Shown here in pieces: positions 1 through 46,331 of a stretch of DNA of 46,331 bases; position 1 is the first letter of the stretch, and every line of letters begins with the position of its first letter. A program made the translations under genes and the position numbers. The stretch is from Desulfotomaculum sp. GTDB taxonomy: Bacteria > Bacillota > Desulfotomaculia > Desulfotomaculales > Desulfohalotomaculaceae. The notes under the pieces were generated by a model. It worked only from the letters and a program-made list of their open reading frames with translations, did no database searches and was not told the DNA's origin. Location of the stretch: the NCBI GenBank assembly GCA_021129825.1, contig JAJOKO010000108.1, positions 1 through 46,331 on the forward strand, read 5' to 3'.

Positions 1-53
1 AGGGGATTAAGGGGAGGGGGGGTTTACCACAAACATACTTTTCGAACACGCAC
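1..53 (+). mobile_element. Right end of a MITE-like element (family A terminus CTTTTCGAACACGCAC at 38-53), cut by the window edge
   Basis: Terminus is identical to the right ends at 15363-15378 and 37144-37159. The subterminal block GGGGATTAAGGGGAGGGGGG matches 16450-16478. Confidence 0.75.
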
Positions 54-3814: not shown

Positions 3815-3840
3815 TTAGATATACATAAGGAGGTGCTTGC

Positions 3841-4089
3841 ATGTATACGAAAATTCAAAAATGGGGTAACAGTCAAGGATTACGTCTTGCCAAGAACGTA
3901 CTGAAAGATGCTCGCCTTGAAGTCGGTAGTGAGGTAAACGTTACAGTACGAGATGGTATTATTACTATCATGCCAATTAGGAAAATTCGTAAGCGGTACT
4001 GCCTTGATGACCTCGTGGCACAAATCCCCGAAGACTACTACACTAGCGAAGTTAATTGGGGGAAACCAGTCGGTAAAGAGGTGTGGTAA
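3841..4089 (+). CDS. mazE: AbrB/MazE/SpoVT-family antitoxin
   Basis: N-terminal KIQKWGNSQGLRLAK swapped-hairpin motif. The stop overlaps the mazF ATG (TAATG). Confidence 0.85.
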   Translation: MYTKIQKWGNSQGLRLAKNVLKDARLEVGSEVNVTVRDGIITIMPIRKIRKRYCLDDLVAQIPEDYYTSEVNWGKPVGKEVW

Positions 4090-4424
4090 TGACGATCTAT
4101 GTTCCGCAGCAAGGTGACATTATTTCCATCACTTTCAACCCCCAGTCCGGACACGAACAAAAAGGTCGCCGACCTGCTTTGGTTGTGAGCAAGGGCATGT
4201 TCAACCGTAGCACTGGCTTGGTTATTGTGTGTCCTTTAACAAACACAGAACGCCGGTTTCCTTTTCATGTACCTGTTCCAGAAAACAGCAATCTGACGGG
4301 GTTTATCATGGTTGAGCAAATCAAGTCGCTCGACTTTAGTACTCGTCGAGCACAGTTCATCGAATATGCCTCAGATGAACTGCTGGCAAATGTGCTATCA
4401 ATATTGGATACTTGCATCTATTAA
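4089..4424 (+). CDS. mazF: MazF/PemK-family endoribonuclease toxin
   Basis: YVPQQGDIISITFNPQSGHEQKGRRPALVVS is typical of the PemK fold. The ORF track offers a GTG at 4083. Confidence 0.85.
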   Translation: MTIYVPQQGDIISITFNPQSGHEQKGRRPALVVSKGMFNRSTGLVIVCPLTNTERRFPFHVPVPENSNLTGFIMVEQIKSLDFSTRRAQFIEYASDELLANVLSILDTCIY

Positions 4425-7442: not shown

Positions 7443-7541
7443 ATTTTTTAAAAAAAATCTTCATTTCCTACTTGCTTTCAGAAAAACATTTGTTGTTTAG
7501 GGGCTTTTCGAAGAACACTTAAAGTTAGGGGTGTACGATTT

Positions 7542-8207
7542 GTGAATATACAATTTTTAAAAAACCATCTTTCAAACAAAATTTTGACTATCAGTATAAT
7601 AATCACGTTGATTATTATCTATGGAGTGGCATTTTTACAGCCCTTTGCTTACGGTATTCGGTATAAGATTGTTTGGTCTCAGGATCTTTGGTCTGAGTAT
7701 CCGATAACTAGAGATTTTCTCACAATTGGAGAGATGCTCCAGTTTTTAAAGATTGCGCCCTTTGATTTTCTACTCTTAGGAGGTCTGCCGGTATTTCTTG
7801 TGTGCGGTACAGCCTTTTTTTACCATCTCTTTTACCGTCTCAGGTGCAGAAGCGGAAAGCAATCTTTGAGTTATCTAAAAACCTTATTAGACGCAACTTT
7901 GATTTTCGCACCAATTACTATTGGAACATGCTTGGGGTTATTATTTGAGTTTTCGCTTGTTGCCAGTGCCCTCCTTGGTGATGCTCCCCTCACCATCTTC
8001 TTTACTTTATTCGCTGTCTTCATTGCGGGTTCTTTATGGTTTTATAAATTGCGGTCACTCTGGCTGGTTTGTGTTGGAAAAATATCTAACCATGGTTACA
8101 TATGGTTATTTTTAATTACAATAAGCTTTTGTTTTTTTTATGTATTTTTGATGGTTCTTGCTATCTTCAATCTCTCGGATATGGTCAGAGCAATTGAAAT
8201 TACTTAA
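7542..8207 (+). CDS. Hypothetical polytopic membrane protein (about 5 TM), no recognised family
   Basis: 221-aa ORF with a GTG start, hydrophobic segments and an AT-rich composition. Confidence 0.55.
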   Translation: MNIQFLKNHLSNKILTISIIITLIIIYGVAFLQPFAYGIRYKIVWSQDLWSEYPITRDFLTIGEMLQFLKIAPFDFLLLGGLPVFLVCGTAFFYHLFYRLRCRSGKQSLSYLKTLLDATLIFAPITIGTCLGLLFEFSLVASALLGDAPLTIFFTLFAVFIAGSLWFYKLRSLWLVCVGKISNHGYIWLFLITISFCFFYVFLMVLAIFNLSDMVRAIEIT

Positions 8208-8266: not shown

Positions 8267-8396
8267 CTTGCTGGGAGTGGTGCGAAAAGAGTATGAAACA
8301 GTGTAGGTGCTTTGCTAAAAGTTAACATAAGGCATATTAGCGGAACCAACAAAAATAGCAAATTTTTAATTTGTTTGTAAAACTTTAGATTATATT

Positions 8397-8451
8397 AATA
8401 TAATTTTAATATAATTTTAATATAATTTTAATATAATTTTAATATAATTTT
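8397..8451. repeat. Five perfect tandem copies of the 11-bp unit AATATAATTTT
   Basis: Counted directly. Each unit contains TATAAT. Partial copies flank the array, which ends 77 bp upstream of the EAL/GGDEF gene start. Confidence 0.95.
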
Positions 8452-8527
8452 AACGAAAATTTAATATAATAATGTTATACTTTAACAGGTGTGTTGAAAG
8501 ATCTTCAGTAACATTGGAGGAATATTT

Positions 8528-10819
8528 ATGTTATCCAGTAAATTTGCAACTAAAATTTCGACAATTATTAATCACCTTCCCTTTTTATCAAATAGTCCCT
8601 TAAAGGGTCTCACTAGTTATTTACAAAACAAGCAGTGGGTTGGTATTCTGTATTTAGATATTGTTAAATTTAGTCTTATTGAAGAAAAGTTTGGTCCAGA
8701 TAGTTGCGCAACAATATTGCAACAGTTAGAAATTACCTGTAAAAATATAGGTGTAGAGGTTGTTTCACCGTATATGGTGATCAAAGTTTACCGTTGGGGC
8801 GATGATATCTGCCTGTTTTTCACCGGCGATTCTTCACCTAGTATTGCTGAATTTCAAAAAAAAGCTTATAAATTTAAAGATGAAGTACGCAGTGCTATTA
8901 ATGAATTTTTAGCTCGTAGTATTAAATTAAAAGGAATATTAATATTAAATCAGCTTGATTTTCACGTCGGCTATGCTATTGCTCGTTCTGAAAAAAGCTC
9001 TTGTAATAAAGCAGTTTATAAAGCTTTAAAAGAAAGTTTTTTAATTGCTAAAAATAAATATAATTTAGAAGAAGTGCTGGGTTTAGAAATACTTAAAGAT
9101 TTAATAACCCAAAGCAATTTCCGGATAGTGTACCAACCGCTAGTTAACCTATCCAATGGCGAAATAATTGGTTATGAAGCCTTGACCCGTGGTCCTGCCG
9201 GTAGCGTTTTAGAATCACCGGGCATGCTCTTTCCATTAGCTGAAAAAGCAGGTTTATTATATCCCTTAGAAAAAGTAACCAGAGAAAAAGCATTAACAGA
9301 AATGCACCGGCTAAATCAGGGGGAAATGCTTTTTTTAAATATTAATCCTACGATATTAAATGACCCTTCTTTTTCGAGCGGTAGAACAAAAGAAATATTG
9401 CAGAAAACACAAAGGATGCCCCAGCATGTTGTTTTTGAAATAACAGAACGCACTGCTATTACTAATTTTTCTGCTTTTCGTAAAGCTTTAGAACATTACC
9501 GCCGTCAAGGCTTTAAAGTAGCAATAGATGATGTCGGTGCCGGTTATTCTAGTTTGCAGTCAGTAGCCGAGCTTAAACCTGATTTTATTAAAATTGATCG
9601 TTCGTTAATCGCTAACATCCACCTGGATTCCACCAAGCAAGCTTTACTGGAAACATTTGTGGTATTTAGTCGTAAAATCAATAGTGCTTTAATTGCCGAA
9701 GGGATTGAAACTAGAGAAGAATTAAAATCAGTTATCCGTTTAGGTGTTAATACCGCCCAAGGTTTTTATATCGCCCGACCGGCTAATCCCTTACCAGATT
9801 TAAATACTGATTTTAAGATGAGCTTAAAAGAAAAAACTACTCGTAAACAAGATGCTTTAAATATGTTACCGTTAGTGGGCGAAATTGTGCAAGCCACCTT
9901 ATATGTAAATACTGGTGATGCTACTGGTGATGTAGTAGCCAAATTTCAACAAAATAAGAACTTGCATAATGTGGTAGTATTAGATTCAAATGAGCAACCA
10001 GTTGGTTTAATAACCCGGGATAAATTATTTTATAAATTAGGTAAACAATATGGTTTTGATCTATATTGCCGGCGGGCAATTGATTTATCGATGGACAAGC
10101 AACCTTTAATTATTGAATCTAATATTGATATTGACACGGCAGCTCAATTAGCAATGCAACGAAATGTTGATCAAATTTATGACCCGTTTATAGTGATTGA
10201 AAATAACCGCAGTTTAGGGCTTGTTTCTATTCGCCAGCTTTTAGATACTATTAGTAATTTGAAAATGGCAGTAGCCCGGTCGGCAAACCCGTTAACTGGT
10301 TTGCCGGGTAATATTGTTATTGAAGCCGAGTTGCTTAAACGCCTTGATAAAAACATCCCTTATGCCGCAATTTATATTGATTTGGATAATTTTAAAGGTT
10401 TTAACGATCGCTATGGCTTTGAACGAGGTGATTTAGCCTTGAAGATGACGGGCAGAATACTTACTGACGTTACTACTCAATATGGCAGCAAACACGATTT
10501 GGTCGGTCACATTGGCGGTGATGATTTTATTATTATCTCCAAACCAAGTCAAGCAGATACTATCTGTCAAAAAATAATTGATCGTTTTGCTGAAACTGCT
10601 CCCAATATTTATGATCAAGAAGATCGTGCGAAAGAATCTATTACTACAGTGGACCGCCAAGGACAAAAAGTACAAATACCAATTATGAGTGTTTCTATCG
10701 TCTCTGCAAAAGGCGGTCCTAAATATAATCCGGTTAGTTTTGAGCAATTAGCTGAAACTATTGCAGTGCTAAAAAAGAAAGCTAAAGCTATTCCAGGTAA
10801 CGCTTATGTGTGCCAATAA
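8528..10819 (+). CDS. Multidomain c-di-GMP protein: degenerate GGDEF (RWGDD), EAL, two CBS, and GGDEF variant (GGDDF)
   Basis: EAL catalytic set is present (YEALTRG, NINP, FEITER, AIDDVGAGYS, KIDRS, AEGIE, QGFY). The C-terminal cyclase-like domain reads DLDNFKGFNDRYGFERGD ... HIGGDDFII. Confidence 0.85.
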   Translation: MLSSKFATKISTIINHLPFLSNSPLKGLTSYLQNKQWVGILYLDIVKFSLIEEKFGPDSCATILQQLEITCKNIGVEVVSPYMVIKVYRWGDDICLFFTGDSSPSIAEFQKKAYKFKDEVRSAINEFLARSIKLKGILILNQLDFHVGYAIARSEKSSCNKAVYKALKESFLIAKNKYNLEEVLGLEILKDLITQSNFRIVYQPLVNLSNGEIIGYEALTRGPAGSVLESPGMLFPLAEKAGLLYPLEKVTREKALTEMHRLNQGEMLFLNINPTILNDPSFSSGRTKEILQKTQRMPQHVVFEITERTAITNFSAFRKALEHYRRQGFKVAIDDVGAGYSSLQSVAELKPDFIKIDRSLIANIHLDSTKQALLETFVVFSRKINSALIAEGIETREELKSVIRLGVNTAQGFYIARPANPLPDLNTDFKMSLKEKTTRKQDALNMLPLVGEIVQATLYVNTGDATGDVVAKFQQNKNLHNVVVLDSNEQPVGLITRDKLFYKLGKQYGFDLYCRRAIDLSMDKQPLIIESNIDIDTAAQLAMQRNVDQIYDPFIVIENNRSLGLVSIRQLLDTISNLKMAVARSANPLTGLPGNIVIEAELLKRLDKNIPYAAIYIDLDNFKGFNDRYGFERGDLALKMTGRILTDVTTQYGSKHDLVGHIGGDDFIIISKPSQADTICQKIIDRFAETAPNIYDQEDRAKESITTVDRQGQKVQIPIMSVSIVSAKGGPKYNPVSFEQLAETIAVLKKKAKAIPGNAYVCQ

Positions 10820-15134: not shown

Positions 15135-15173
15135 ATATGATCAAAAGATGAAAAGGTAAAGAGATTTCTTTTA

Positions 15174-15378
15174 GTGCGTGTTCGAAAAGGGTACCCTTTA
15201 GCACATTTGAAATTTACATATTAATCCAATTAACCTTAAAGCACACCCCCACCCTACCCTCCCCCATCAAGGGGGAGGAGACTTGATTTCCCCTCCCCTC
15301 GTGGGAGGGGCGGGTACCCACCCGAAGGGAAGGGTGCGGGGAGGGGGGTTGCCACAAACATACTTTTCGAACACGCAC
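15174..15378. mobile_element. Complete family A MITE (205 bp)
   Basis: Perfect 16-bp TIR GTGCGTGTTCGAAAAG / CTTTTCGAACACGCAC. Identical TTTTA 5-mers lie at 15169-15173 and 15379-15383. The core is GC-rich and multi-hairpin, with no ORF. Confidence 0.9.
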
Positions 15379-15429
15379 TTTTAGTTCTTTAATTCTTTAA
15401 TCTCTTAATCTCTCAAAGGAGTACTTAAA

Positions 15430-16281: not shown

Positions 16282-16317
16282 ACAAGCACCAATCACTCAC
16301 CCCTCCCATATACCTAT

Positions 16318-16520
16318 GAGTACTCTCGGAAAGTCTAACCCCACTATTTCTGTACCTTTCAAAGAAAGTTTTCGTTTTTTCACCCCCACCTGCACCCTTC
16401 CCTTCGGGTGGGTACCCGCTCCCCCATCAAGGGGGAGGGAACTTGATTTCCCCTCCCCTCGTGGGAGGGGATTAAGGGGAGGGGGGATTTTATAACAAAA
16501 CTCCTTTTTGAACATATACT
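16318..16520. mobile_element. Hybrid MITE: family B left terminus (GAGTACTCTCGGAAAG) and a degenerate family A-like right end
   Basis: 16318-16470 is nearly identical to 45692-45840. The right end CTCCTTTTTGAACATATAC aligns with ATACTTTTCGAACACGCAC. The 72-aa ORF inside is judged spurious. Confidence 0.8.
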
Positions 16521-16554
16521 TAAAGATATCTTTTAGGTTGCGGGAGGGGTTTTT

Positions 16555-17229
16555 TTGGAGTTAATTGCTATCATAATATTTGCTTTAGCTTTGAATATGG
16601 ATGCCTTTGGAACCGGCATAGCTTATGGTATCAGAAGAATTAAAATTCCTTTTAATTCGGTGCTGATTATCAGCCTAATGTCAGTAATAGCTATTAGTAT
16701 TTCAATGATAGCGGGACATCTGCTGACCGGTATATTATCTGAATCATTGGCCCGGCAGCTTGGAGGTATTTTATTAATAATCTTGGGTATTTGGTTATTG
16801 ATTCAATGTCGTCCAAATTCAAAAAACGGCACTGCCAAACAGCATCAAAAAGAGAAATTGCAAAAAACAGTGTTAAAACTACGCCTTAAAATGCTCGGAT
16901 TAGTAATTCAAGTGCTACGTGAACCAGTAAAAGCTGATTTAGATAAATCTGGTGTTATCAGTTCACGCGAGGCTCTTTTGCTAGGGTATGCACTGGCTTT
17001 AGACGCTTTCGGAGCCGGTTTTGCAGTAGCTATGATTGGATTTAACTTGATTATCACGGTGGTTGTAGTCGGATTAGGACATATTTTAATGATTTACTCC
17101 GGGTTAATCCTAGGTAGCCGTTTTATAGCTACTAATATTGGACCTAAAATGGCTGTAATACCAGGTTTAATCCTAATTATCATCGGGATATTTAAGTTAA
17201 TCAGCGTTCAGCTATCAGCTATCAGCTAA
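16555..17229 (+). CDS. ytaF: Sporulation membrane protein YtaF (MntP-like fold)
   Basis: LALNMDAFGTGIAYGIRRIKIP and a second LALDAFGAGFAV repeat. The polA-mutM-ytaF order matches Bacillus. Confidence 0.8.
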   Translation: MELIAIIIFALALNMDAFGTGIAYGIRRIKIPFNSVLIISLMSVIAISISMIAGHLLTGILSESLARQLGGILLIILGIWLLIQCRPNSKNGTAKQHQKEKLQKTVLKLRLKMLGLVIQVLREPVKADLDKSGVISSREALLLGYALALDAFGAGFAVAMIGFNLIITVVVVGLGHILMIYSGLILGSRFIATNIGPKMAVIPGLILIIIGIFKLISVQLSAIS

Positions 17230-17277
17230 AGATTTAAAAGATTTTAGCTGAACGCTGACTGCTGATCGCTGAAAGCT
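17201..17277. repeat. Inverted pair of heptamer arrays forming a hairpin that spans the ytaF stop codon
   Basis: Left arm TCAGCGT TCAGCTA TCAGCTA TCAGCTA (17201-17228). Right arm AGCTGAA CGCTGAC TGCTGAT CGCTGAA AGCT (17246-17277), followed by ATTTTTATT. Confidence 0.85.
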
Positions 17278-17285
17278 TATTTTTA

Positions 17286-28828: not shown

Positions 28829-28851
28829 TCCTATAAAGCAGTTTTATTAAC

Positions 28852-29045
28852 AGTACGTGTTCGGAGTTTAGCGGATAGGTGACACACCTGTTTCACAGGA
28901 ATGTCCCCATCAATCTATAGACCCAAGAAGTTCAAGGCGACTTTGTAATGGTGGCGTGAAGCGTATAAATAATACGTAAGCGTCGCTATTACAAAGTTAA
29001 CGCAGAAATTCGCTGGGTATTTCGCACGGACTTTTCGAACATCCT
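28852..29045 (+). mobile_element. Degenerate composite element in the dprA-topA spacer
   Basis: Order: decayed A-type left end (AGTACGTGTTCGGAG), an inverted family C mini-hairpin (28878-28912), a 17-bp-stem hairpin core (28939-28997), then a decayed A-type right end (CTTTTCGAACATCC). Confidence 0.65.
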
Positions 29046-30167
29046 CTAACGCTTAGATTTTACTGCTGCATACATCCTACCGGGCATTTTCTTGATTAAG
29101 CCCTTAATTTCCAGAAACATTAAAGCGGCTATCACTTCCTGGGAAGGAGAGTTTATTTTTAGTAATAACGCTTCTAAATGTTGCGGATTAACAGCTAATT
29201 CTTCCCAAACTGTTTGTTCAGTAATACTTAATTTGGGTTTTGGCGAGGCAATAACTTCTTGATCGTCAAACAATGTTTTTACTCTCTGTTCTTCTAAACC
29301 CAATTCTTCTAAAACATCTGCTACGCCGGTAACTGGTTTTGCTCCTTGCTTTAATAATTTTAACGGTCCCTTACTCATATCGCTATAGATATCACCCGGT
29401 ACAACCATCACATCCCGATCTTGTTCTAAAGCAAAATCTGCTGTAATCAGTGCACCACTTTTAGGTCCTGCTTCTACCACGATAGTCAGTTGGGAAAGAC
29501 CACTAATAATCCGATTTCGTGCCGGAAAATGCCACGCTTCTGGCGGTGAACCCAGCGGAAATTCAGTAATAACAGCACCTTTTTGAACAATTTCAGCTAA
29601 CAGTTTAGAATTTTCAGGCGGATAAACCACATCTGCACCGCACCCCAACACTGCTACTGTAAAACCCTTATGGCTACTCAGCACCCCGCGATGAGCAATA
29701 GTATCTATCCCCCTGGCCATACCACTAACTACACTAACCCCGTGCTCAGCGAGTTCACTGGCTAACCGGCGGGCAACAGTGCGACCATAGTCAGTAGGTT
29801 TGCGTGAACCGACCATGGCTACAGTATGATTATAGTCTAGTTGTTTAAGACTACCTCTCACAAATAGTACTAGCGGCGGATCAAAAATTTGTTTTAAAGG
29901 TGGTGGGTAATCTTGATCAGCATAAGTTATAAAATCTACCTGCTGTTTCTGTAAACGAGCTACCTCTTTTTCTAAATTAATCTTCTGACGCTGCCACATC
30001 AAGCCTTCTACCATTACCGAAGTAATTTTAGGAACTTGCAGTAACTCTGTTTCACTGGCTTGCCAAGCTAGCTCTGGTCCACCAAAATGATCTATGATTT
30101 TCCACACCCGCTTACCAGCACCCGGTAATAATAATTGCCAACCTAGCCAGTAGATTCTGCTATCCAA
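29046..30167 (-). CDS. dprA: DNA processing protein DprA
   Basis: Rossmann-like core with GMARGIDTIAHRG and a C-terminal wHTH-like domain. It lies upstream of topA, as in Bacillus. Confidence 0.9.
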   Translation of the reverse strand: MDSRIYWLGWQLLLPGAGKRVWKIIDHFGGPELAWQASETELLQVPKITSVMVEGLMWQRQKINLEKEVARLQKQQVDFITYADQDYPPPLKQIFDPPLVLFVRGSLKQLDYNHTVAMVGSRKPTDYGRTVARRLASELAEHGVSVVSGMARGIDTIAHRGVLSSHKGFTVAVLGCGADVVYPPENSKLLAEIVQKGAVITEFPLGSPPEAWHFPARNRIISGLSQLTIVVEAGPKSGALITADFALEQDRDVMVVPGDIYSDMSKGPLKLLKQGAKPVTGVADVLEELGLEEQRVKTLFDDQEVIASPKPKLSITEQTVWEELAVNPQHLEALLLKINSPSQEVIAALMFLEIKGLIKKMPGRMYAAVKSKR

Positions 30168-36910: not shown

Positions 36911-37011
36911 AATTGCAACTCCTTTTTTAAAAATATTTTTGATAAAAAGTAGCTATACCAATAAGCCTGATCTTCTTCACTCCAACTTATTACAATTGTT
37001 TTATATTTATA

Positions 37012-37159
37012 GTGCGTGTTCGAAAAGGGTACCATTTAGCACATTTGAAATTTACATATTAATCCAATTAACCTTAAAGCACACCCCCACCCTACCCTCC
37101 CCCATCAAGGGGGAGGGTAGGGTGGGGGGTTACCACAAACATACTTTTCGAACACGCAC
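37012..37159. mobile_element. Complete family A MITE (148 bp, simplest form)
   Basis: Perfect 16-bp TIRs and TTATA direct repeats (37007-37011 and 37160-37164). The core is a perfect 20-bp stem CCCCCACCCTACCCTCCCCC-ATCAA-GGGGGAGGGTAGGGTGGGGG. Confidence 0.9.
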
Positions 37160-37335
37160 TTATACATGGTCATAACCTCCAAGTTGATATTTTTTAATTA
37201 TCCTCTTTATCACGCCAACCTTAAAAATATTCTTGGTATCATTATACCATTGCCAGATTTTTATATTCAAGTCTTTTTAGGTTGATTTAGAGCTGACGCA
37301 TGAAACGGGTGCCCATACCCTTCCCTGTCCCCTGC

Positions 37336-41462: not shown

Positions 41463-41578
41463 TATAAACCTCCCGATTTGGTTGTCAGTCGGATGAAATA
41501 TATTTTAAATACCACTTGAATTGTACTTGTTTATTTTCATCAAGTCAATAACTGGTATCTTTTTTTATAAAAAACATC

Positions 41579-41616
41579 TTGACAAATATCGACTAGTGTT
41601 TATAATGTATATATAC
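41579..41616 (+). promoter_or_regulatory. Promoter plus palindromic candidate operator of the GntR/ABC operon
   Basis: TTGACA (41579-41584), 16-nt spacer, TATAAT (41601-41606), immediately followed by the perfect palindrome GTATATATAC (41607-41616). The block is duplicated at 46126-46163. Confidence 0.6.
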
Positions 41617-41681
41617 AACATGTTCACTATCAACAATTAGTGGTGGTGATTTTAAAGTGAGCAACAAGAAAGGGCTATGCT

Positions 41682-42062: not shown

Positions 42063-42929
42063 ATGGAAAATATTTTGGAAATTAAAAATTTAACTAAAAA
42101 ATACTCTGATTTTACGCTGGACGATATTTCGTTTAACCTGAAAAAAGGTTATATCATGGGGTTGATCGGTCCTAACGGCTCTGGTAAAACTACTATTATT
42201 AAATTAATAATGAATTTAATTCAAAAGACCGGCGGGGAAATAAAAATATTTGGTCACGATTACGGTAAATACGAGCGGGAAATAAAACAACGCATTGGTG
42301 TAGTTTATGATCAAAATTATTATTATGAAAATTTAAACGCTTTAGAGATCCAGCGGATTATCGCCTCTTTTTACAAGCATTGGGATAAAAAGGTTTTTAG
42401 CAGTTATTTAAAAAGATTTGACTTGCCGGATTATCAAAAAATTAGCAAATTATCTAAAGGAATGAAAACTAAATTTTCACTGGCGATGGCCTTATCCCAT
42501 CAAGCGGAATTGATTATTATGGACGAACCCAGTTCGGGACTGGACCCGGTGTTCAGGCAAGAATTGCAGGGAATTTTAACTGAGTTAATCCAAGATGAAA
42601 ATAAAAGCGTGCTTTTTTCTACCCATATTACCAGTGATTTAGACCGGACAGCAGATTATATTACTTTCATCAATAAAGGAAAACTAGTTTTCAGTGCCGA
42701 AAAAGACCGCCTGCTGGATAATTACGGGATAGTTAAGGGCAGTAATGAATTATTAAACGAAGATATTAAAACCGAATTTATAGGTATCAGGCAAACTTCT
42801 GTAGGTTTCGAGGCTTTAACTGCCAATGCTCCGGCAATCCGCCGCTTGTTCAAAGAAAAAGTAGTGGTAGAGCGACCTACCATAGAAGATATCATGGTGT
42901 ATACCATCAAAGGAGAGCTGCAATCATGA
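42063..42929 (+). CDS. ABC transporter ATP-binding protein
   Basis: Walker A GPNGSGKTT, signature LSKGMKTK, Walker B IIMDEPSSGLD. Confidence 0.9.
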   Translation: MENILEIKNLTKKYSDFTLDDISFNLKKGYIMGLIGPNGSGKTTIIKLIMNLIQKTGGEIKIFGHDYGKYEREIKQRIGVVYDQNYYYENLNALEIQRIIASFYKHWDKKVFSSYLKRFDLPDYQKISKLSKGMKTKFSLAMALSHQAELIIMDEPSSGLDPVFRQELQGILTELIQDENKSVLFSTHITSDLDRTADYITFINKGKLVFSAEKDRLLDNYGIVKGSNELLNEDIKTEFIGIRQTSVGFEALTANAPAIRRLFKEKVVVERPTIEDIMVYTIKGELQS

Positions 42930-43609
42930 CTCACCCGGTGTTGAATTTGGTTAGAAAAGATTTGTTTTTATTAATGATTTCAAAAAAACTGCTACTGCTC
43001 TTTGTAACTAGCATGCTCTTGTTTCCAATGTTTAGCAACGATATTTTCCGGGAATTTATATATATATTTCCCCCTATTTTATTTGCCACTATTTGTTTTA
43101 TATGGGTAACCTCAGATTATGAAATTATTTTGAATACTTTACCGGTAAAACGCAGTGATATTATAAAGGCTGGCTATCTATCTTATTTTTTATTTATGAT
43201 CATAGGATTGTTGATAATAAGTTTAGCTGGTTTCTTATTTCAATTTATTTTAACAACTATAATAACTTTCAGATTAATTAACTGGTTTGATATATGGGCA
43301 GTTTTTATTAGCGGTAGCCTGTTTCTTGCTGTTTTTTCACCAGTGAATTTCAAATTTACTGGTGAAAAAACAGCACTATTGTTATACTTGCCTTTATTTT
43401 TTATATTTCTTGGAGCATCTTATGTAACAGCTATTTTATCAATTCAACATCTTTCGAATAAACAAAGTGATTGGCTGCTACCATATATGACCGTATCTTT
43501 TGATTTTTTAAATTGGAGCATGATTTTGGGATTATCGCTCTTAATTTTAATATTATTGTTTTGCTCGATCTTATTATCCCTAAAAATCTATCAAAAACGG
43601 GATCTTTGA
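42926..43609 (+). CDS. ABC-2-type membrane permease (6 TM)
   Basis: The start overlaps the ATPase stop (ATGA). Hydrophobic 227-aa protein. Confidence 0.7.
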   Translation: MTHPVLNLVRKDLFLLMISKKLLLLFVTSMLLFPMFSNDIFREFIYIFPPILFATICFIWVTSDYEIILNTLPVKRSDIIKAGYLSYFLFMIIGLLIISLAGFLFQFILTTIITFRLINWFDIWAVFISGSLFLAVFSPVNFKFTGEKTALLLYLPLFFIFLGASYVTAILSIQHLSNKQSDWLLPYMTVSFDFLNWSMILGLSLLILILLFCSILLSLKIYQKRDL

Positions 43610-43754: not shown

Positions 43755-44879
43755 ATGCGTACAATGAGCAAATTTTTATCTATTTGTTTAGTATTAGTGC
43801 TGGTGGTAACTGTTGGTTGTAGCGGTAAAGTAGATTTAGTGGCTGAAGAAGAATTAGTAGATAAAGTGGTCGAGGTCTACCAAGGTATTGAAACAGTACA
43901 GTTTGATATGAATATGTCTATGCAAGCAGAAATGAAAATAGGTGCAAAAACTGAGCAGTTTGATAGCACTACTACCGGCAGTGGCGTGATAGATAATGTT
44001 AATCAAGCCATGAAAATGACGATGCAGATGCAAATGCCGGGTCTAGACGGTGCAGTAGCAGAAACCATGGAAACAGAAATGTACTTTATCAACAACGTGC
44101 TTTACACTAAAATGGGCGGCATAGCAGATATGCCTGTTACTTGGACCAAGATGGCAATGCCGCCGGATTACGAACCAATGCCTATTGATCAACTGGTGAA
44201 ATTATTAAAAACATCAAAAATTGAAGTTTTAGGTACAGAAGAAATTGATGGTGTTTATTGTTATGTAGTTAAATTAACACCGGATATCAAACAATTTTGG
44301 GAGATGATGACGCAACAAATGGGTCTGGGCTTAGATATTCCCGCAAAGGATATAGATGCTACCGCTTTAGAGGAAATGATTGAAAGCCTGTCTATCACCC
44401 AGTGGATTGCCCAAGATACTTTTTTACCATTAAAAGAACAGACGCAAATGACGCTAGTTATGAATCCGGTCAACATGGACTTGCCTGATGTTCCGCCAGA
44501 AGAATCTTTTGAAAGCAGAATAGTGATGGACATCACTACAACTTATCACAGCTATAATGAACCAGTGACTATTCAACTGCCGGCTGCGGCTAAAGATGCT
44601 CAAAGCATGGATGAAGTGATGGCGGAAATAGGATTTGAAGGCACTATTAAAGAAATTGATACCACCAAAGAAAACACTGTTTTAGTAGTTACAGAAGCAG
44701 GAACACAGTATTGGATTACCATCAAAACAGAAACAGATATCATGAATCCAGACGGTGGCAGTGCTTCGTTTGACGCCCTGCAAACCGGACAAAAAGTATC
44801 TATAATATTCAACCCGGAATATCCTATTTTAGAAACTGACCCGGTACAAGCGGTAGCAAGTTTGGTAATTATGTTATAG
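43755..44879 (+). CDS. Lipoprotein, LolA-like/DUF6612-like body with a DUF3221-like C-terminal domain
   Basis: Lipobox VTVGCSG and a Met/Gln-rich mid region. The C-terminus (GQKVSIIFNPEYPILETDPVQAVASLVI) resembles YobA-type DUF3221. Family assignment is tentative. Confidence 0.55.
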   Translation: MRTMSKFLSICLVLVLVVTVGCSGKVDLVAEEELVDKVVEVYQGIETVQFDMNMSMQAEMKIGAKTEQFDSTTTGSGVIDNVNQAMKMTMQMQMPGLDGAVAETMETEMYFINNVLYTKMGGIADMPVTWTKMAMPPDYEPMPIDQLVKLLKTSKIEVLGTEEIDGVYCYVVKLTPDIKQFWEMMTQQMGLGLDIPAKDIDATALEEMIESLSITQWIAQDTFLPLKEQTQMTLVMNPVNMDLPDVPPEESFESRIVMDITTTYHSYNEPVTIQLPAAAKDAQSMDEVMAEIGFEGTIKEIDTTKENTVLVVTEAGTQYWITIKTETDIMNPDGGSASFDALQTGQKVSIIFNPEYPILETDPVQAVASLVIML

Positions 44880-44904
44880 GGAGTTGCCGAGTTGGTAGAG
44901 TAAG

Positions 44905-45071
44905 CCACTAAGGAAGTTCTGGGCGCCCTTTGGGCACGACTTGGTGATGGCGGGGTAAAGCGTATAAATAATATGTAAGCATCGCCATTACCGAGTCAAC
45001 ACCCAAGAGGTACCCGGAAATTTGGATGCCCTCTGGGCAAGGTATTTCGCACGGACTTTTCGAACACGCAC
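44905..45071 (+). mobile_element. Solo or degenerate element with the hairpin core shared with 28916-29045 and a perfect A-type right terminus
   Basis: GGTATTTCGCACGGACTTTTCGAACACGCAC (45041-45071). Core AAGCGTATAAATAATATGTAAGC is flanked by the stem GACTTGGTGATGGCG / CGCCATTACCGAGTC. The left boundary is not identifiable. Confidence 0.6.
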
Positions 45072-45446: not shown

Positions 45447-45499
45447 TTTTTACCTCCTAATAAAGTTGGTGAATAGAGCTACCTAGCCCTATTCTCTTA

Positions 45500-45596
45500 G
45501 TGCGTGTTCGAAAAGTAATAATTAACACCCTATATAGTGCTTTTAATTTTATTAGCTACAATATATAGTATAATATTAAACTTTTCGAACACGCTG
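45500..45596. mobile_element. Miniature (97 bp) family A MITE with an AT-rich interior
   Basis: Left TIR is perfect. Right TIR is CTTTTCGAACACGCTG, diverged at the tip. TCTTA direct repeats lie at 45495-45499 and 45597-45601. Confidence 0.8.
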
Positions 45597-45633
45597 TCTT
45601 AGTAACTCTAATACCAGTTTGGTATAATTTTTT

Positions 45634-46031
45634 TTAAACAAAGGGTTTTTGTTTTGGAATTGAAATATTCTTTTCTCCCTTTTTAAAATAGGAGTACTCT
45701 CGGAAAGTCTAACCCCACTATTTCTGTACCTTTCAAAGAAAGTTTTCGTTTTTTCACCCCCACCTGCACCCTTCCCTTCGGGTGGGTACCCGCTCCCCCA
45801 TCAAGGGGGAGGGAACTTGATTTCCCCTCCACTAGTGGGAGGGGGTTAGGGGGAGGGGGTGTTTGGAACTTTTTAACTGTTTCCGAGAGTGCTCAAATAG
45901 TAATGGCTCGAACCACCTCTTGGCTGTCGCATTTCAAATCCTGCATTTAAGAGCAACTTTTGGAGTGTTTCAAACCTTGCGTTGTTAGGGTTATTTCTGA
46001 GTTTTGCAATTAGCTTTTCTCTTTTGCTCAT
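45634..46031 (-). pseudogene. hicA: hicA toxin gene interrupted by a MITE
   Basis: The 5' part runs 46031 to 45895 (MSKREKLIAKLRNNPNNARFETLQKLLLNAGFEMRQPRGGSSHYY). The 3' part runs 45690 to 45634 (FKKGEKNISIPKQKPFV, then stop). Removing 45692-45894 plus one AAATAG copy restores a 62-aa HicA ORF. Confidence 0.8.
45692..45894. mobile_element. Complete family B MITE (203 bp) inserted in hicA
   Basis: Termini GAGTACTCTCGGAAAG and reverse complement GAGCACTCTCGGAAAC. AAATAG direct repeats at 45686-45691 and 45895-45900. The core is shared with 16318-16470. Confidence 0.85.
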
Positions 46032-46108: not shown

Positions 46109-46276
46109 TTTTTTATAAAAAACATCTTGACAAATAGCGACTGGTGTTTATAATGTATATATACGTTATATTCACTATCCAACGAAGATATTATGGTGTA
46201 TACCATCAAAGGAGAGATACAATAATGTCCCATCCAGTGTTGAATTTAGTTAAAAAAGATTTGTTAATTATCAATC
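46109..46276 (+). pseudogene. Deletion-derivative paralog of the GntR/ABC operon
   Basis: 46109-46183 aligns with the promoter/operator at 41563-41634. 46184-46265 aligns with the ATPase 3' end plus permease start at 42885-42967. The permease remnant (ATG 46225, MSHPVLNLVKKDLLIIN) is cut by a MITE at 46277. Confidence 0.8.
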
Positions 46277-46331
46277 GTGCGTGTTCGAAAAGGGTACCAT
46301 TTAGCACATTTAAAATTTACATATTAATCCA
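46277..46331 (+). mobile_element. Left end of a family A MITE, cut by the window edge
   Basis: GTGCGTGTTCGAAAAGGGTACCATTTAGCACATTTAAAATTTACATATTAATCCA matches 37012-37066, apart from one base (A for G at 46311), and 15174-15229. Confidence 0.85.

Follow-up and report, generated by a model that had tools for sequence, protein, structure and literature searches.

Among the MITEs (miniature transposable elements with inverted repeats) of bacteria, Correia and RUP elements duplicate TA. The closest described Firmicute analogue of the elements analyzed here is bcr1, the group A repeats of the Bacillus cereus group, which are non-coding, about 155 bp long, flanked by 5-bp TTTAT sequences, folded into a cruciform-like structure and not assigned to any transposase (PMC3184786, PMC6542083). 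We liken the two by description and not by sequence; a synthetic mini-element carrying our termini matches Paenibacillus plasmids only and no plasmid of the B. cereus group. A 2024 review of prokaryotic MITEs makes no mention of IS1182, of Firmicutes/Bacillota or of Clostridia. Here we describe short repeats in 46,331 nucleotides of DNA from Desulfotomaculum sp. (GenBank assembly GCA_021129825.1, contig JAJOKO010000108.1, positions 1 to 46,331; hereafter the window), taking as our starting point a 205-bp element in the spacer between polA and mutM. These repeats are very probably non-coding MITEs that are bounded by the ends of an IS1182-like insertion sequence (IS) and moved in trans by the transposase of that IS. 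An initial annotation of the window had likewise read them as products of transposition, and this reading is borne out by the terminal inverted repeats (TIRs), by the target duplications and by a parent IS with a matching terminus found elsewhere.

Termini, target duplications and the parent insertion sequence

The 16-nt terminus GTGCGTGTTCGAAAAG occurs exactly at eight places in the window: at 38-53(-), 15174(+), 15363(-), 37012(+), 37144(-), 45056(-), 45500(+) and 46277(+). Near-matches lie at 45581(-), with two mismatches, and at 29031(-), with three. These ten matches compare with 0.31 expected from dinucleotide-preserving shuffles of the window, and ten matches were reached in 0/100 shuffles. 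Three complete copies, which we call A-type, are closed by this terminus at both ends. The first (A1; 15174-15378, feature 15169..15383) is the 205-bp element of the polA-mutM spacer, with perfect 16-bp TIRs at 15174-15189 and 15363-15378 and a TTTTA target duplication at 15169-15173 and 15379-15383. The second (A2; 37012-37159, feature 37007..37164) is 148 bp long, also has perfect TIRs, lies downstream of a dedA-like gene and is flanked by TTATA at 37007-37011 and 37160-37164. The third (A3; 45500-45596, feature 45495..45601) is only 97 bp long, has an AT-rich interior lacking the GC-rich module described below, and is flanked by TCTTA at 45495-45499 and 45597-45601. Direct reading of the sequence confirms the 205-bp and 148-bp elements as first annotated, termini and flanks included. 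For the 97-bp element the duplication stands but the claim of identical termini does not, since its right TIR has two mismatches at the outer tip (14/16 complementary, against 16/16 in A1 and A2).

Given the base composition of the window, the chance of a single 5/5 flank match is about 0.001-0.002, so three such matches are not chance. A1 and A2 are identical at 104/105 positions across their first 105 nt, which indicates recent amplification, and the left arms of the A-type copies agree at 53-54/55. All of the MITEs are 97-205 bp long and have no coding capacity for a transposase; together, the ten pieces that we recognize account for 3.0% of the window.

The initial annotation could name no parent for these termini. 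We find the same end on a Desulfotomaculum metagenome-assembled-genome (MAG) contig, L048, which carries TTTTAAGTGCGTGTTCGAAAAG. The IS on this contig starts exactly AAGTGCGTGTTCGAAAAG, a sequence that includes the 16-mer of the window, and its end is identical to the window terminus over 18 nt. An open reading frame (ORF) begins about 110 nt downstream of the terminus, and its first 68 residues are a transposase N-terminus. Through this ORF fragment we reached a complete parent IS on a plasmid of Alicyclobacillus fastidiosus, which is 1636 bp long, has the termini GAGCGTGTCCGAAAAG / GAGGTTGTCCGAAAAG and contains one 442-aa ORF with DUF772 and DDE_Tnp_1 domains. Copies of the parent IS measure 1631-1636 bp and encode a single protein of 437-442 aa, with DUF772 at the N-terminus followed by the DDE_Tnp_1 catalytic domain. 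Perfect 5-bp duplications flank 11/11 IS copies (ten in A. fastidiosus, one in contig L234): TATTA, TTATA (five times, once in L234), TTAAA, TAATA, TTTAA (twice), TATAA and ATATA. Duplication length and AT-rich composition are therefore the same for the parent IS and for the MITEs of the window. The A-type copies use the left-end sequence of the IS on both sides. A long, transposase-bearing element with the TIR of the MITEs thus exists, as a DDE IS of about 1.63 kb in other genomes (L048 and A. fastidiosus). The window itself holds a trace of it at 7462..7523(-), a solo left end of 62 bp that consists of the decayed terminus AGTGTTCTTCGAAAAG and about 45 nt of IS subterminal sequence and is 89% identical to the subterminal 63 nt of the IS on L048.

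GenBank/NCBI labels the parent proteins just "transposase". The best NCBIfam model for six of them is IS1182, to whose profile they align at N-terminal positions 6-157 and C-terminal positions 248-474, with 85-110 bits against the NF033551 cut-off of 270. An exhaustive HMMER scan over 1.84 billion representatives gave 94 proteins at E<=1e-10, of which 21 reach E<=1e-30, and from this we take the parent transposases to be a compact, distinct clade. By these profile scores the parent IS is best called IS1182-like only, its transposase being a probable distant relative of those of IS1182. The TIR that was at first not assignable to any IS family can thus be placed by its best model, although not by a curated family score.

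To find relatives of the MITEs, we scanned the bare 16-mer over species-representative genome contigs and obtained 71 loci. About four fifths of these look like chance, in unrelated high-GC genomes. In Bacillota, the 16-mer forms the left end of short elements (36-175 bp), which are closed on the right by a GAGGNTGTTCRAAAAG-type end, with hosts in Paenibacillus, Lentibacillus, Oceanobacillus, Alicyclobacillaceae, Halanaerobiales, Peptococcaceae and a Clostridiales MAG. Perfect 5-bp duplications flank 7/10 of the small Bacillota elements that carry the exact 16-mer, among them two Clostridiales-MAG loci and those in Lentibacillus, Paenibacillus lautus, Halanaerobiales and Peptococcaceae; the duplicated sequences are TTGAA, TTAAA, TGAAA, TAGAA, TTATA and TACAA, with the seventh in one of these classes. 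When all duplications are pooled, the first position is nearly always T and the fifth nearly always A, and the middle is mostly A/T. The TYWTA target consensus first proposed from three window copies is too narrow, and about T-N-N-N-A fits the pooled set; the tabulation of flanking 5-mers otherwise upholds transposition, with perfect duplications at 11/11 IS copies and 7/10 small elements. A blastn search of A1 against plasmids gave no match, and full-text literature searches for the terminus and cassette sequences returned no relevant paper.

How such elements might move can be outlined from their parent. The transposase would bind the 16-18-bp termini, with the consensus (A)G(T/A)G(C/G)NTGT(T/C)CGAAAAG. 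The element would be excised or copied and then joined to an AT-rich 5-bp target of about T-N-N-N-A by cuts staggered by 5 bp, and repair of the stagger would leave the 5-bp duplication. We infer the mobilization in trans, the reaction chemistry and the location of the transposase source in the genome. The window itself contains no transposase, as the initial annotation had stated: no transposase domain was found by a Pfam scan of the 30 largest ORFs, and tblastn of 115 parent-IS transposases against the window gave nothing (best E-value 0.03).

Further elements, an unoccupied site and rival explanations

Two more A-type copies, both reported in the initial annotation and both confirmed, are cut by the edges of the window. 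The left-edge copy (1..53) is a right end only, which ends ...CTTTTCGAACACGCAC, is followed by TATTA at 54-58 and has as its interior a variant of the GC-rich module, GGGGATTAAGGGGAGGGGGGG. The right-edge copy (46277..46331) is a left end only, which is preceded by CAATC, matches A1 at 53/55 and A2 at 54/55 positions, and breaks into a paralogue of ORF 42926-43609 after seventeen codons. The sequence just outside it, 46109-46276, is a compacted duplicate of the ABC-operon promoter region (41561-41631) joined to the start of the third gene (42880-42966), at 92% and 86% identity; the duplicated ORF starts at 46226 and is broken by the MITE after 17 codons. We considered that the window might be a circle joined through one element and ruled this out, because the outer flanks TATTA and CAATC differ.

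A sub-family of two elements has a different, long-hairpin interior. D1 (194 bp, 28853-29046; feature 28848..29051) lies in the dprA-topA spacer, where it directly adjoins the stop codon of dprA. The left end, GTACGTGTTCGGAG, has decayed, the right end, GAGGATGTTCGAAAAG, keeps the right-end type of the IS, and the flanks TAACA/TAACG match at 4/5 positions. D2 (about 193 bp, about 44879-45071) has a decayed left end with an uncertain boundary, while its right end is exact GTGCGTGTTCGAAAAG. The two have in common a subterminal GGTATTTCGCACGGA and a 64-nt hairpin core (28938-29001 and 44937-45000) that is 83% identical and in which, between these two copies, pairing survives several G-T wobbles and a double change from T-A to G-C. 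These loci had been taken for decayed or solo ends at 28852-29045 and 44905-45071; they are instead full-length members (about 194 bp) of the sub-family. The placement of A1 between polA and mutM and of D1 between dprA and topA was correct. The stop codons of dprA (29046-29048) and of a DUF6612 gene (44877-44879) overlap the outermost base of D1 and D2, respectively.

Three pieces had been overlooked: the IS-end remnant at 7462-7523, and two elements, at 45692-45894 and 16318-16519, that have a third kind of terminus and carry the GC-rich module. C1 (203 bp, 45692-45894; feature 45686..45900) is bounded by GAGTACTCTCGGAAAG / GAGCACTCTCGGAAAC and has AAATAG on both sides. The other element (202 bp, 16318..16519) is chimeric, with the C-type terminus GAGTACTCTCGGAAAG on the left and an A-type variant, GTATATGTTCAAAAAG, on the right, and is 96% identical to C1 over 176 nt. 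No IS with the C-type terminus was present among all loci gathered.

The chimeric element provides a comparison between strains. Contig L072 comes from a different sample; its MutM is identical, its spacer has SNPs and the element is missing: the contig reads ...ATACCTAT-TAT-TAAAGATATC... where the window reads ...ATACCTAT[202 bp]TTAAAGATATC.... The site is ACCTAT-TAT-TAAAG in L072 and ACCTAT[element]TTAAAG in the window. A single insertion is ruled out as the origin of the chimera, since the unoccupied site has three extra bases and contains CCTAT and TTAAA once each. We suggest instead that a C-type element would first have inserted at CCTAT and an A/B-type element at TTAAA, 2 bp away, after which recombination through the common GC-rich cassette would have removed the intervening DNA. 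Two insertions followed by recombination would fit the unlike ends, the unlike flanks and the presence of each flank once in the empty site. The element sits in the loop of a terminator-like hairpin of mutM (CCCCTCCC at 16300-16307 and GGGAGGGG within 16542-16556, then T7), and this loop is 35 nt long in the unoccupied strain.

The closest MutM outside the sampled population is 62% identical, with the best named relatives in Desulfohalotomaculum, Desulfotomaculum and Peptococcaceae, so the host is an uncultured, deep-branching relative of this group. At that distance MutM relatives are not suitable for finding empty sites at the nucleotide level, and we compared spacer lengths. The two nearest relatives keep the gene order ctpB-polA-mutM-mntP-coaE. 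The polA-mutM spacer is 30 bp in one of them and absent in the other, where the genes overlap, as compared to 295 bp in the window; the mutM-mntP spacer is 79 and 76 bp in the relatives and 73 bp in L072, as compared to 273 bp in the window. Insertions are thus tolerated both in a terminator loop and inside the conserved cluster polA-mutM-mntP.

Several observations weigh against mobilization by an IS1182-like transposase. We looked for empty sites by exact-protein look-ups (HicB, DedA-like and PolA) in a sampled population that is nearly clonal, and the outcome was mixed: L072 is unoccupied at 16318-16519, yet its site differs by 3 bp from a clean single 5-mer, and no precise empty site was found for an A-type (GTGCG-type) copy, as the contigs with the same HicB, DedA-like or PolA protein are all occupied. 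The flanks of the chimeric element, CCTAT / TTAAA, are not duplicated, those of D2 (TTATA / TACAA) do not match, and the CAATC beside the right-edge copy is off the target consensus. The parent transposases fall short of the curated score of any named IS family. Lastly, within the 46 kb the autonomous element of the source organism is represented only by the 62-bp end remnant.

This last observation bears on whether the family still moves. It is possible, although we doubt it, that the MITEs are fossils whose autonomous IS has been lost, so that nothing moves at present and what remains is spacer DNA that is neutral or has been co-opted. The truncated and mutated IS end would be expected in this case, as would the failure of tblastn to recover any transposase fragment in the window, the recurrence of the same insertions in every independent contig with the same HicB, DedA-like, MutM or PolA protein, and the decayed ends of D1, D2 and the chimeric element. 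However, the near identity of A1 to A2 (104/105) and of the left arms to each other (53-54/55) points to recent copying, the site at 16318-16519 is polymorphic between strains, and an intact IS is quite possible in the genome beyond the 46 kb seen.

An improbable explanation is that the units are primarily functional RNA or regulatory sequences (terminators, mRNA stabilizers or small RNAs) and that their mobility is secondary. Their predicted folds are very stable (z-scores -6.3 to -10.2), downstream of the dedA-like gene the A2 hairpin and its T-rich tail are flagged as resembling a terminator, pairing is kept in the D1/D2 hairpin through the double change and wobbles noted above, and the elements occupy gene-end positions within a conserved gene cluster. 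Yet TIR pairing by itself gives part of the fold energy, the copies are too few for a covariation test, A1 and the chimeric element have no terminator-like site, and orientation relative to the neighboring genes is inconsistent. No Rfam 15 family reaches threshold on the elements, the best being anti-hemB at 23 bits against 49.5; over the whole window, tRNA-Trp is the sole match at gathering score, and permissive thresholds added nothing credible.

Far less probable still is the alternative named in the initial annotation, that these are REP- or BIME-like units spread by a tyrosine (RAYT/HUH) transposase or by recombination, with matching 5-mers that are incidental. GC-rich palindromes in an AT-rich genome, mosaic elements that swap modules, and a related module in a repeat without TIR or duplication (L091, described below) would all suit such units. 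This explanation is disfavored by three perfect and one 4/5 target duplications, by termini that match a DDE-transposase IS with 5-bp duplications in 11/11 copies, by the 97-bp A3, which has termini and duplication but no GC palindrome, and by the occurrence of a RAYT/Y1-transposase domain in 0/30 scanned ORFs.

Both window ends lie inside element copies, and short-read contigs typically break inside the elements, as expected of a high-copy repeat; the elements thereby explain the shattering of short-read assemblies of this uncultured Desulfotomaculum-like host into 1-5 kb contigs. Chimeric assembly joins through the repeat are nevertheless a negligible explanation, since independent assemblies of several samples, in ENA and Logan, also contain both junctions of A1 (contig L235 on the left, L073/L074 on the right), A3 and D2 (both in L211/L212), one junction of A2 (L218) and the left junction of C1 (L211/L212).

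GC-rich cassettes and the remaining sequence of the window

The MITEs of the window share a GC-rich cassette in several forms. In A1 this module (15244..15348) is an outer C-rich/G-rich stem enclosing three hairpins (CTCCCCC-ATCAA-GGGGGAG, CCCCTCCC-CTCGT-GGGAGGGG and a third), in a predicted three-hairpin junction closed by the outer stem, while the core of A2 is a perfect 20-bp GC-rich hairpin at 37084-37128. The five cassettes of the window (15244-15348, 37082-37129, 1-25, 16383-16492 and 45757-45864) all lie inside MITEs, with two terminus types and in at least three arrangements. Outside the MITEs, the window has cassette-type blocks just in the stem of the mutM terminator and as scattered short runs. 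Blocks such as CACCCCCACCC, CCCTCCCCC-ATCAA-GGGGGAGGG and CCCCTCCCC-TCGT-GGGAGGGG-ATTAA-GGGGAGGGGGG occur in A1, A2, C1, the chimeric element and the left-edge copy, and the general plan is CACCCCCACC-N4-6-CCTCCCCC-ATCAA-GGGGGAGG, often followed by CCCCTCCCC-N4-GGGAGGGG-N3-5-GGGGAGGGGG. A1 and the C-type elements share a stretch of 52 nt at 92-96% identity on backbones that are otherwise unrelated, and one sub-hairpin lies inverted on the opposite side in this comparison. In A1, A2 and the C-type copies the GC-rich interior is cargo and does not belong to the transposition machinery; the 97-bp A3 and the relatives of 36-58 bp in other genomes have no GC module.

The cassette resembles BoxC/PIT/TMECO, potential intrastrand-triplex motifs that are widespread across bacteria (Holder et al. 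2015, PMC4666352). As published, the pattern CCCTCNCCC-N3-6-GGGNGAGGG-N3-GGGNGAGGG has no exact match in the window elements. If each block may contain one mismatch and the second loop may measure 2-5 nt, matches appear in A2 (both strands) and A1 (minus strand), as compared to 0 matches in 50 shuffles; if two mismatches per block are allowed, the chimeric element and C1 match as well.

Searching for the cassette elsewhere, we found at least 120 exact occurrences of the hairpin 20-mer CTCCCCCATCAAGGGGGAGG in JGI metagenome contigs, which range from 33 to 72% GC; this BoxC/PIT/TMECO-like motif is thus the same to the base in very dissimilar genomes. Among the matches listed, CACCCCCACC lies 4-6 nt upstream of CTCCCCCATCAAGGGGGAGG in 93/124 distinct occurrences, and none of 120 cassette-bearing metagenome loci has the termini of the window, which indicates that these loci do not come from the source organism. 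With 12-nt arms, at most one mismatch and a duplication of at least 4 bp, an enclosing TIR plus duplication is present at 4/104 cassette sites and 0/101 controls. For instance, a second MITE family carries the cassette at two different loci (L200, 8310-8537; L099, reverse, 3836-4092), with the TIR GGGTGCATTCCCTGTTT and the 8-bp duplications GTGAAATC and CACCTCTT; in L099 an additional hairpin is nested in the loop of the cassette's second hairpin. A third family (L108, 1960-2308) has the TIR CTGACTCCTCTTC and the 9-bp duplication GCCAATTGA. In a final example, a repeat of about 200 bp in L091 (4225-4650, and 9230-9650 in reverse) contains, in addition to the cassette, the subterminal hairpins CCCCCCAGTTCTGCTGGGGGG and CCCCGCAGCTCTGCTGCGGGG; it lacks both TIR and duplication, and by its layout is reminiscent of non-autonomous elements of the IS200/IS605 type. 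The cassette is thus a recurrent passenger of several kinds of non-autonomous element. We note separately sub-threshold matches to Rfam RF02837 (anti-hemB, a Burkholderia sRNA) at 16383-16493 (23 bits) and 45757-45847 (17.6 bits), for a gathering score of 49.5; the anti-hemB sRNA may itself be a cassette of this kind.

Apart from the elements, the window carries ordinary genes. Its 30 largest ORFs have housekeeping or toxin-antitoxin domains, or none (7542-8207), and the genes include trpFBA, ctpB, polA, mutM, mntP, codY, hslUV, xerC, trmFO, topA, dprA, ddl and pfk as well as an ABC transporter, HicB and HepT. Two other repeats were seen. The tandem heptamer family AGCTGAY/MGCTGA has 12 matches as compared to 0.12 expected (at 58-86, 124-159, 1994-2030, 17201-17228 and 17242-17281). 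It forms inverted arrays at the ends of genes, with heptamers lying upstream of trpF, following trpB and covering the 3' end of mntP. At 8395-8470, directly upstream of an EAL/GGDEF/CBS gene (8528-10819), lies a tandem repeat with an 11-bp unit, TTAATATAATT, in 6.9 copies with 87% match.

Comparison with known systems

The elements of the window have what defines a MITE, namely TIRs, a duplication of fixed length, small size and an autonomous partner, although the unoccupied site is not cleanly precise. In this respect the finding is sound but will not surprise a specialist. Like the Correia/nemis elements of Neisseria and RUP of Streptococcus pneumoniae (Delihas 2011, PMC3184786), they are short, non-coding, multi-copy, intergenic and strongly folded as single strands, and they have TIRs in common with an IS and target duplications of fixed length. 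They differ from Correia and RUP in their termini and in their parent, which here is a DDE element of IS1182-like type that targets 5 bp of the form T-N-N-N-A. They are also distinct from REP/BIME units, which are short RAYT-associated palindromes without TIR-type ends or duplication.

The parent IS resembles the IS1182 family (IS1182, IS1272) in its combination of DUF772 and DDE_Tnp_1, in its size and in its Gram-positive hosts. IS1272 inserts by palindrome replacement and makes no duplication (PMC5678879), whereas 11/11 copies of the parent IS have a 5-bp duplication. The family is heterogeneous in ISfinder, with direct repeats of 2-60 bp (PMC7335449). What emerges is a previously unnamed IS/MITE lineage in Bacilli and Clostridia in which the 16-nt terminus is strikingly conserved and the 5-bp target is T-N-N-N-A.

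The nesting of one repeat within another also has a parallel. Elhai et al. (2008) reportedly described cyanobacterial small dispersed repeats nested in MITEs, with GC-rich hairpins within repeats and within one another. The nested hairpin of L099 and the third hairpin of A1 are alike in kind, although sequences and hosts differ.

The comparison that extends furthest is with the triplex motifs. The cassette follows the block plan of BoxC/PIT/TMECO, in which a C-rich block is separated by a loop from two G-rich blocks, themselves set apart by a short loop, but here the blocks form full palindromes or three-way junctions in the predicted folds. The dispersal mechanism of BoxC/PIT-type motifs has been explicitly left open in the literature, and Holder et al. 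never found them associated with mobile elements (PMC4666352), whereas every module of the window lies inside a MITE. We tentatively suggest that a BoxC/PIT/TMECO-like cassette could be a promiscuous passenger of MITEs and that carriage by MITEs might be one way in which such motifs disperse, both within a bacterial genome and from one genome to another. The cassettes are carried by transposon derivatives here and in no fewer than two unrelated MITE families from metagenomes, which offers a testable route for the spread of these motifs.

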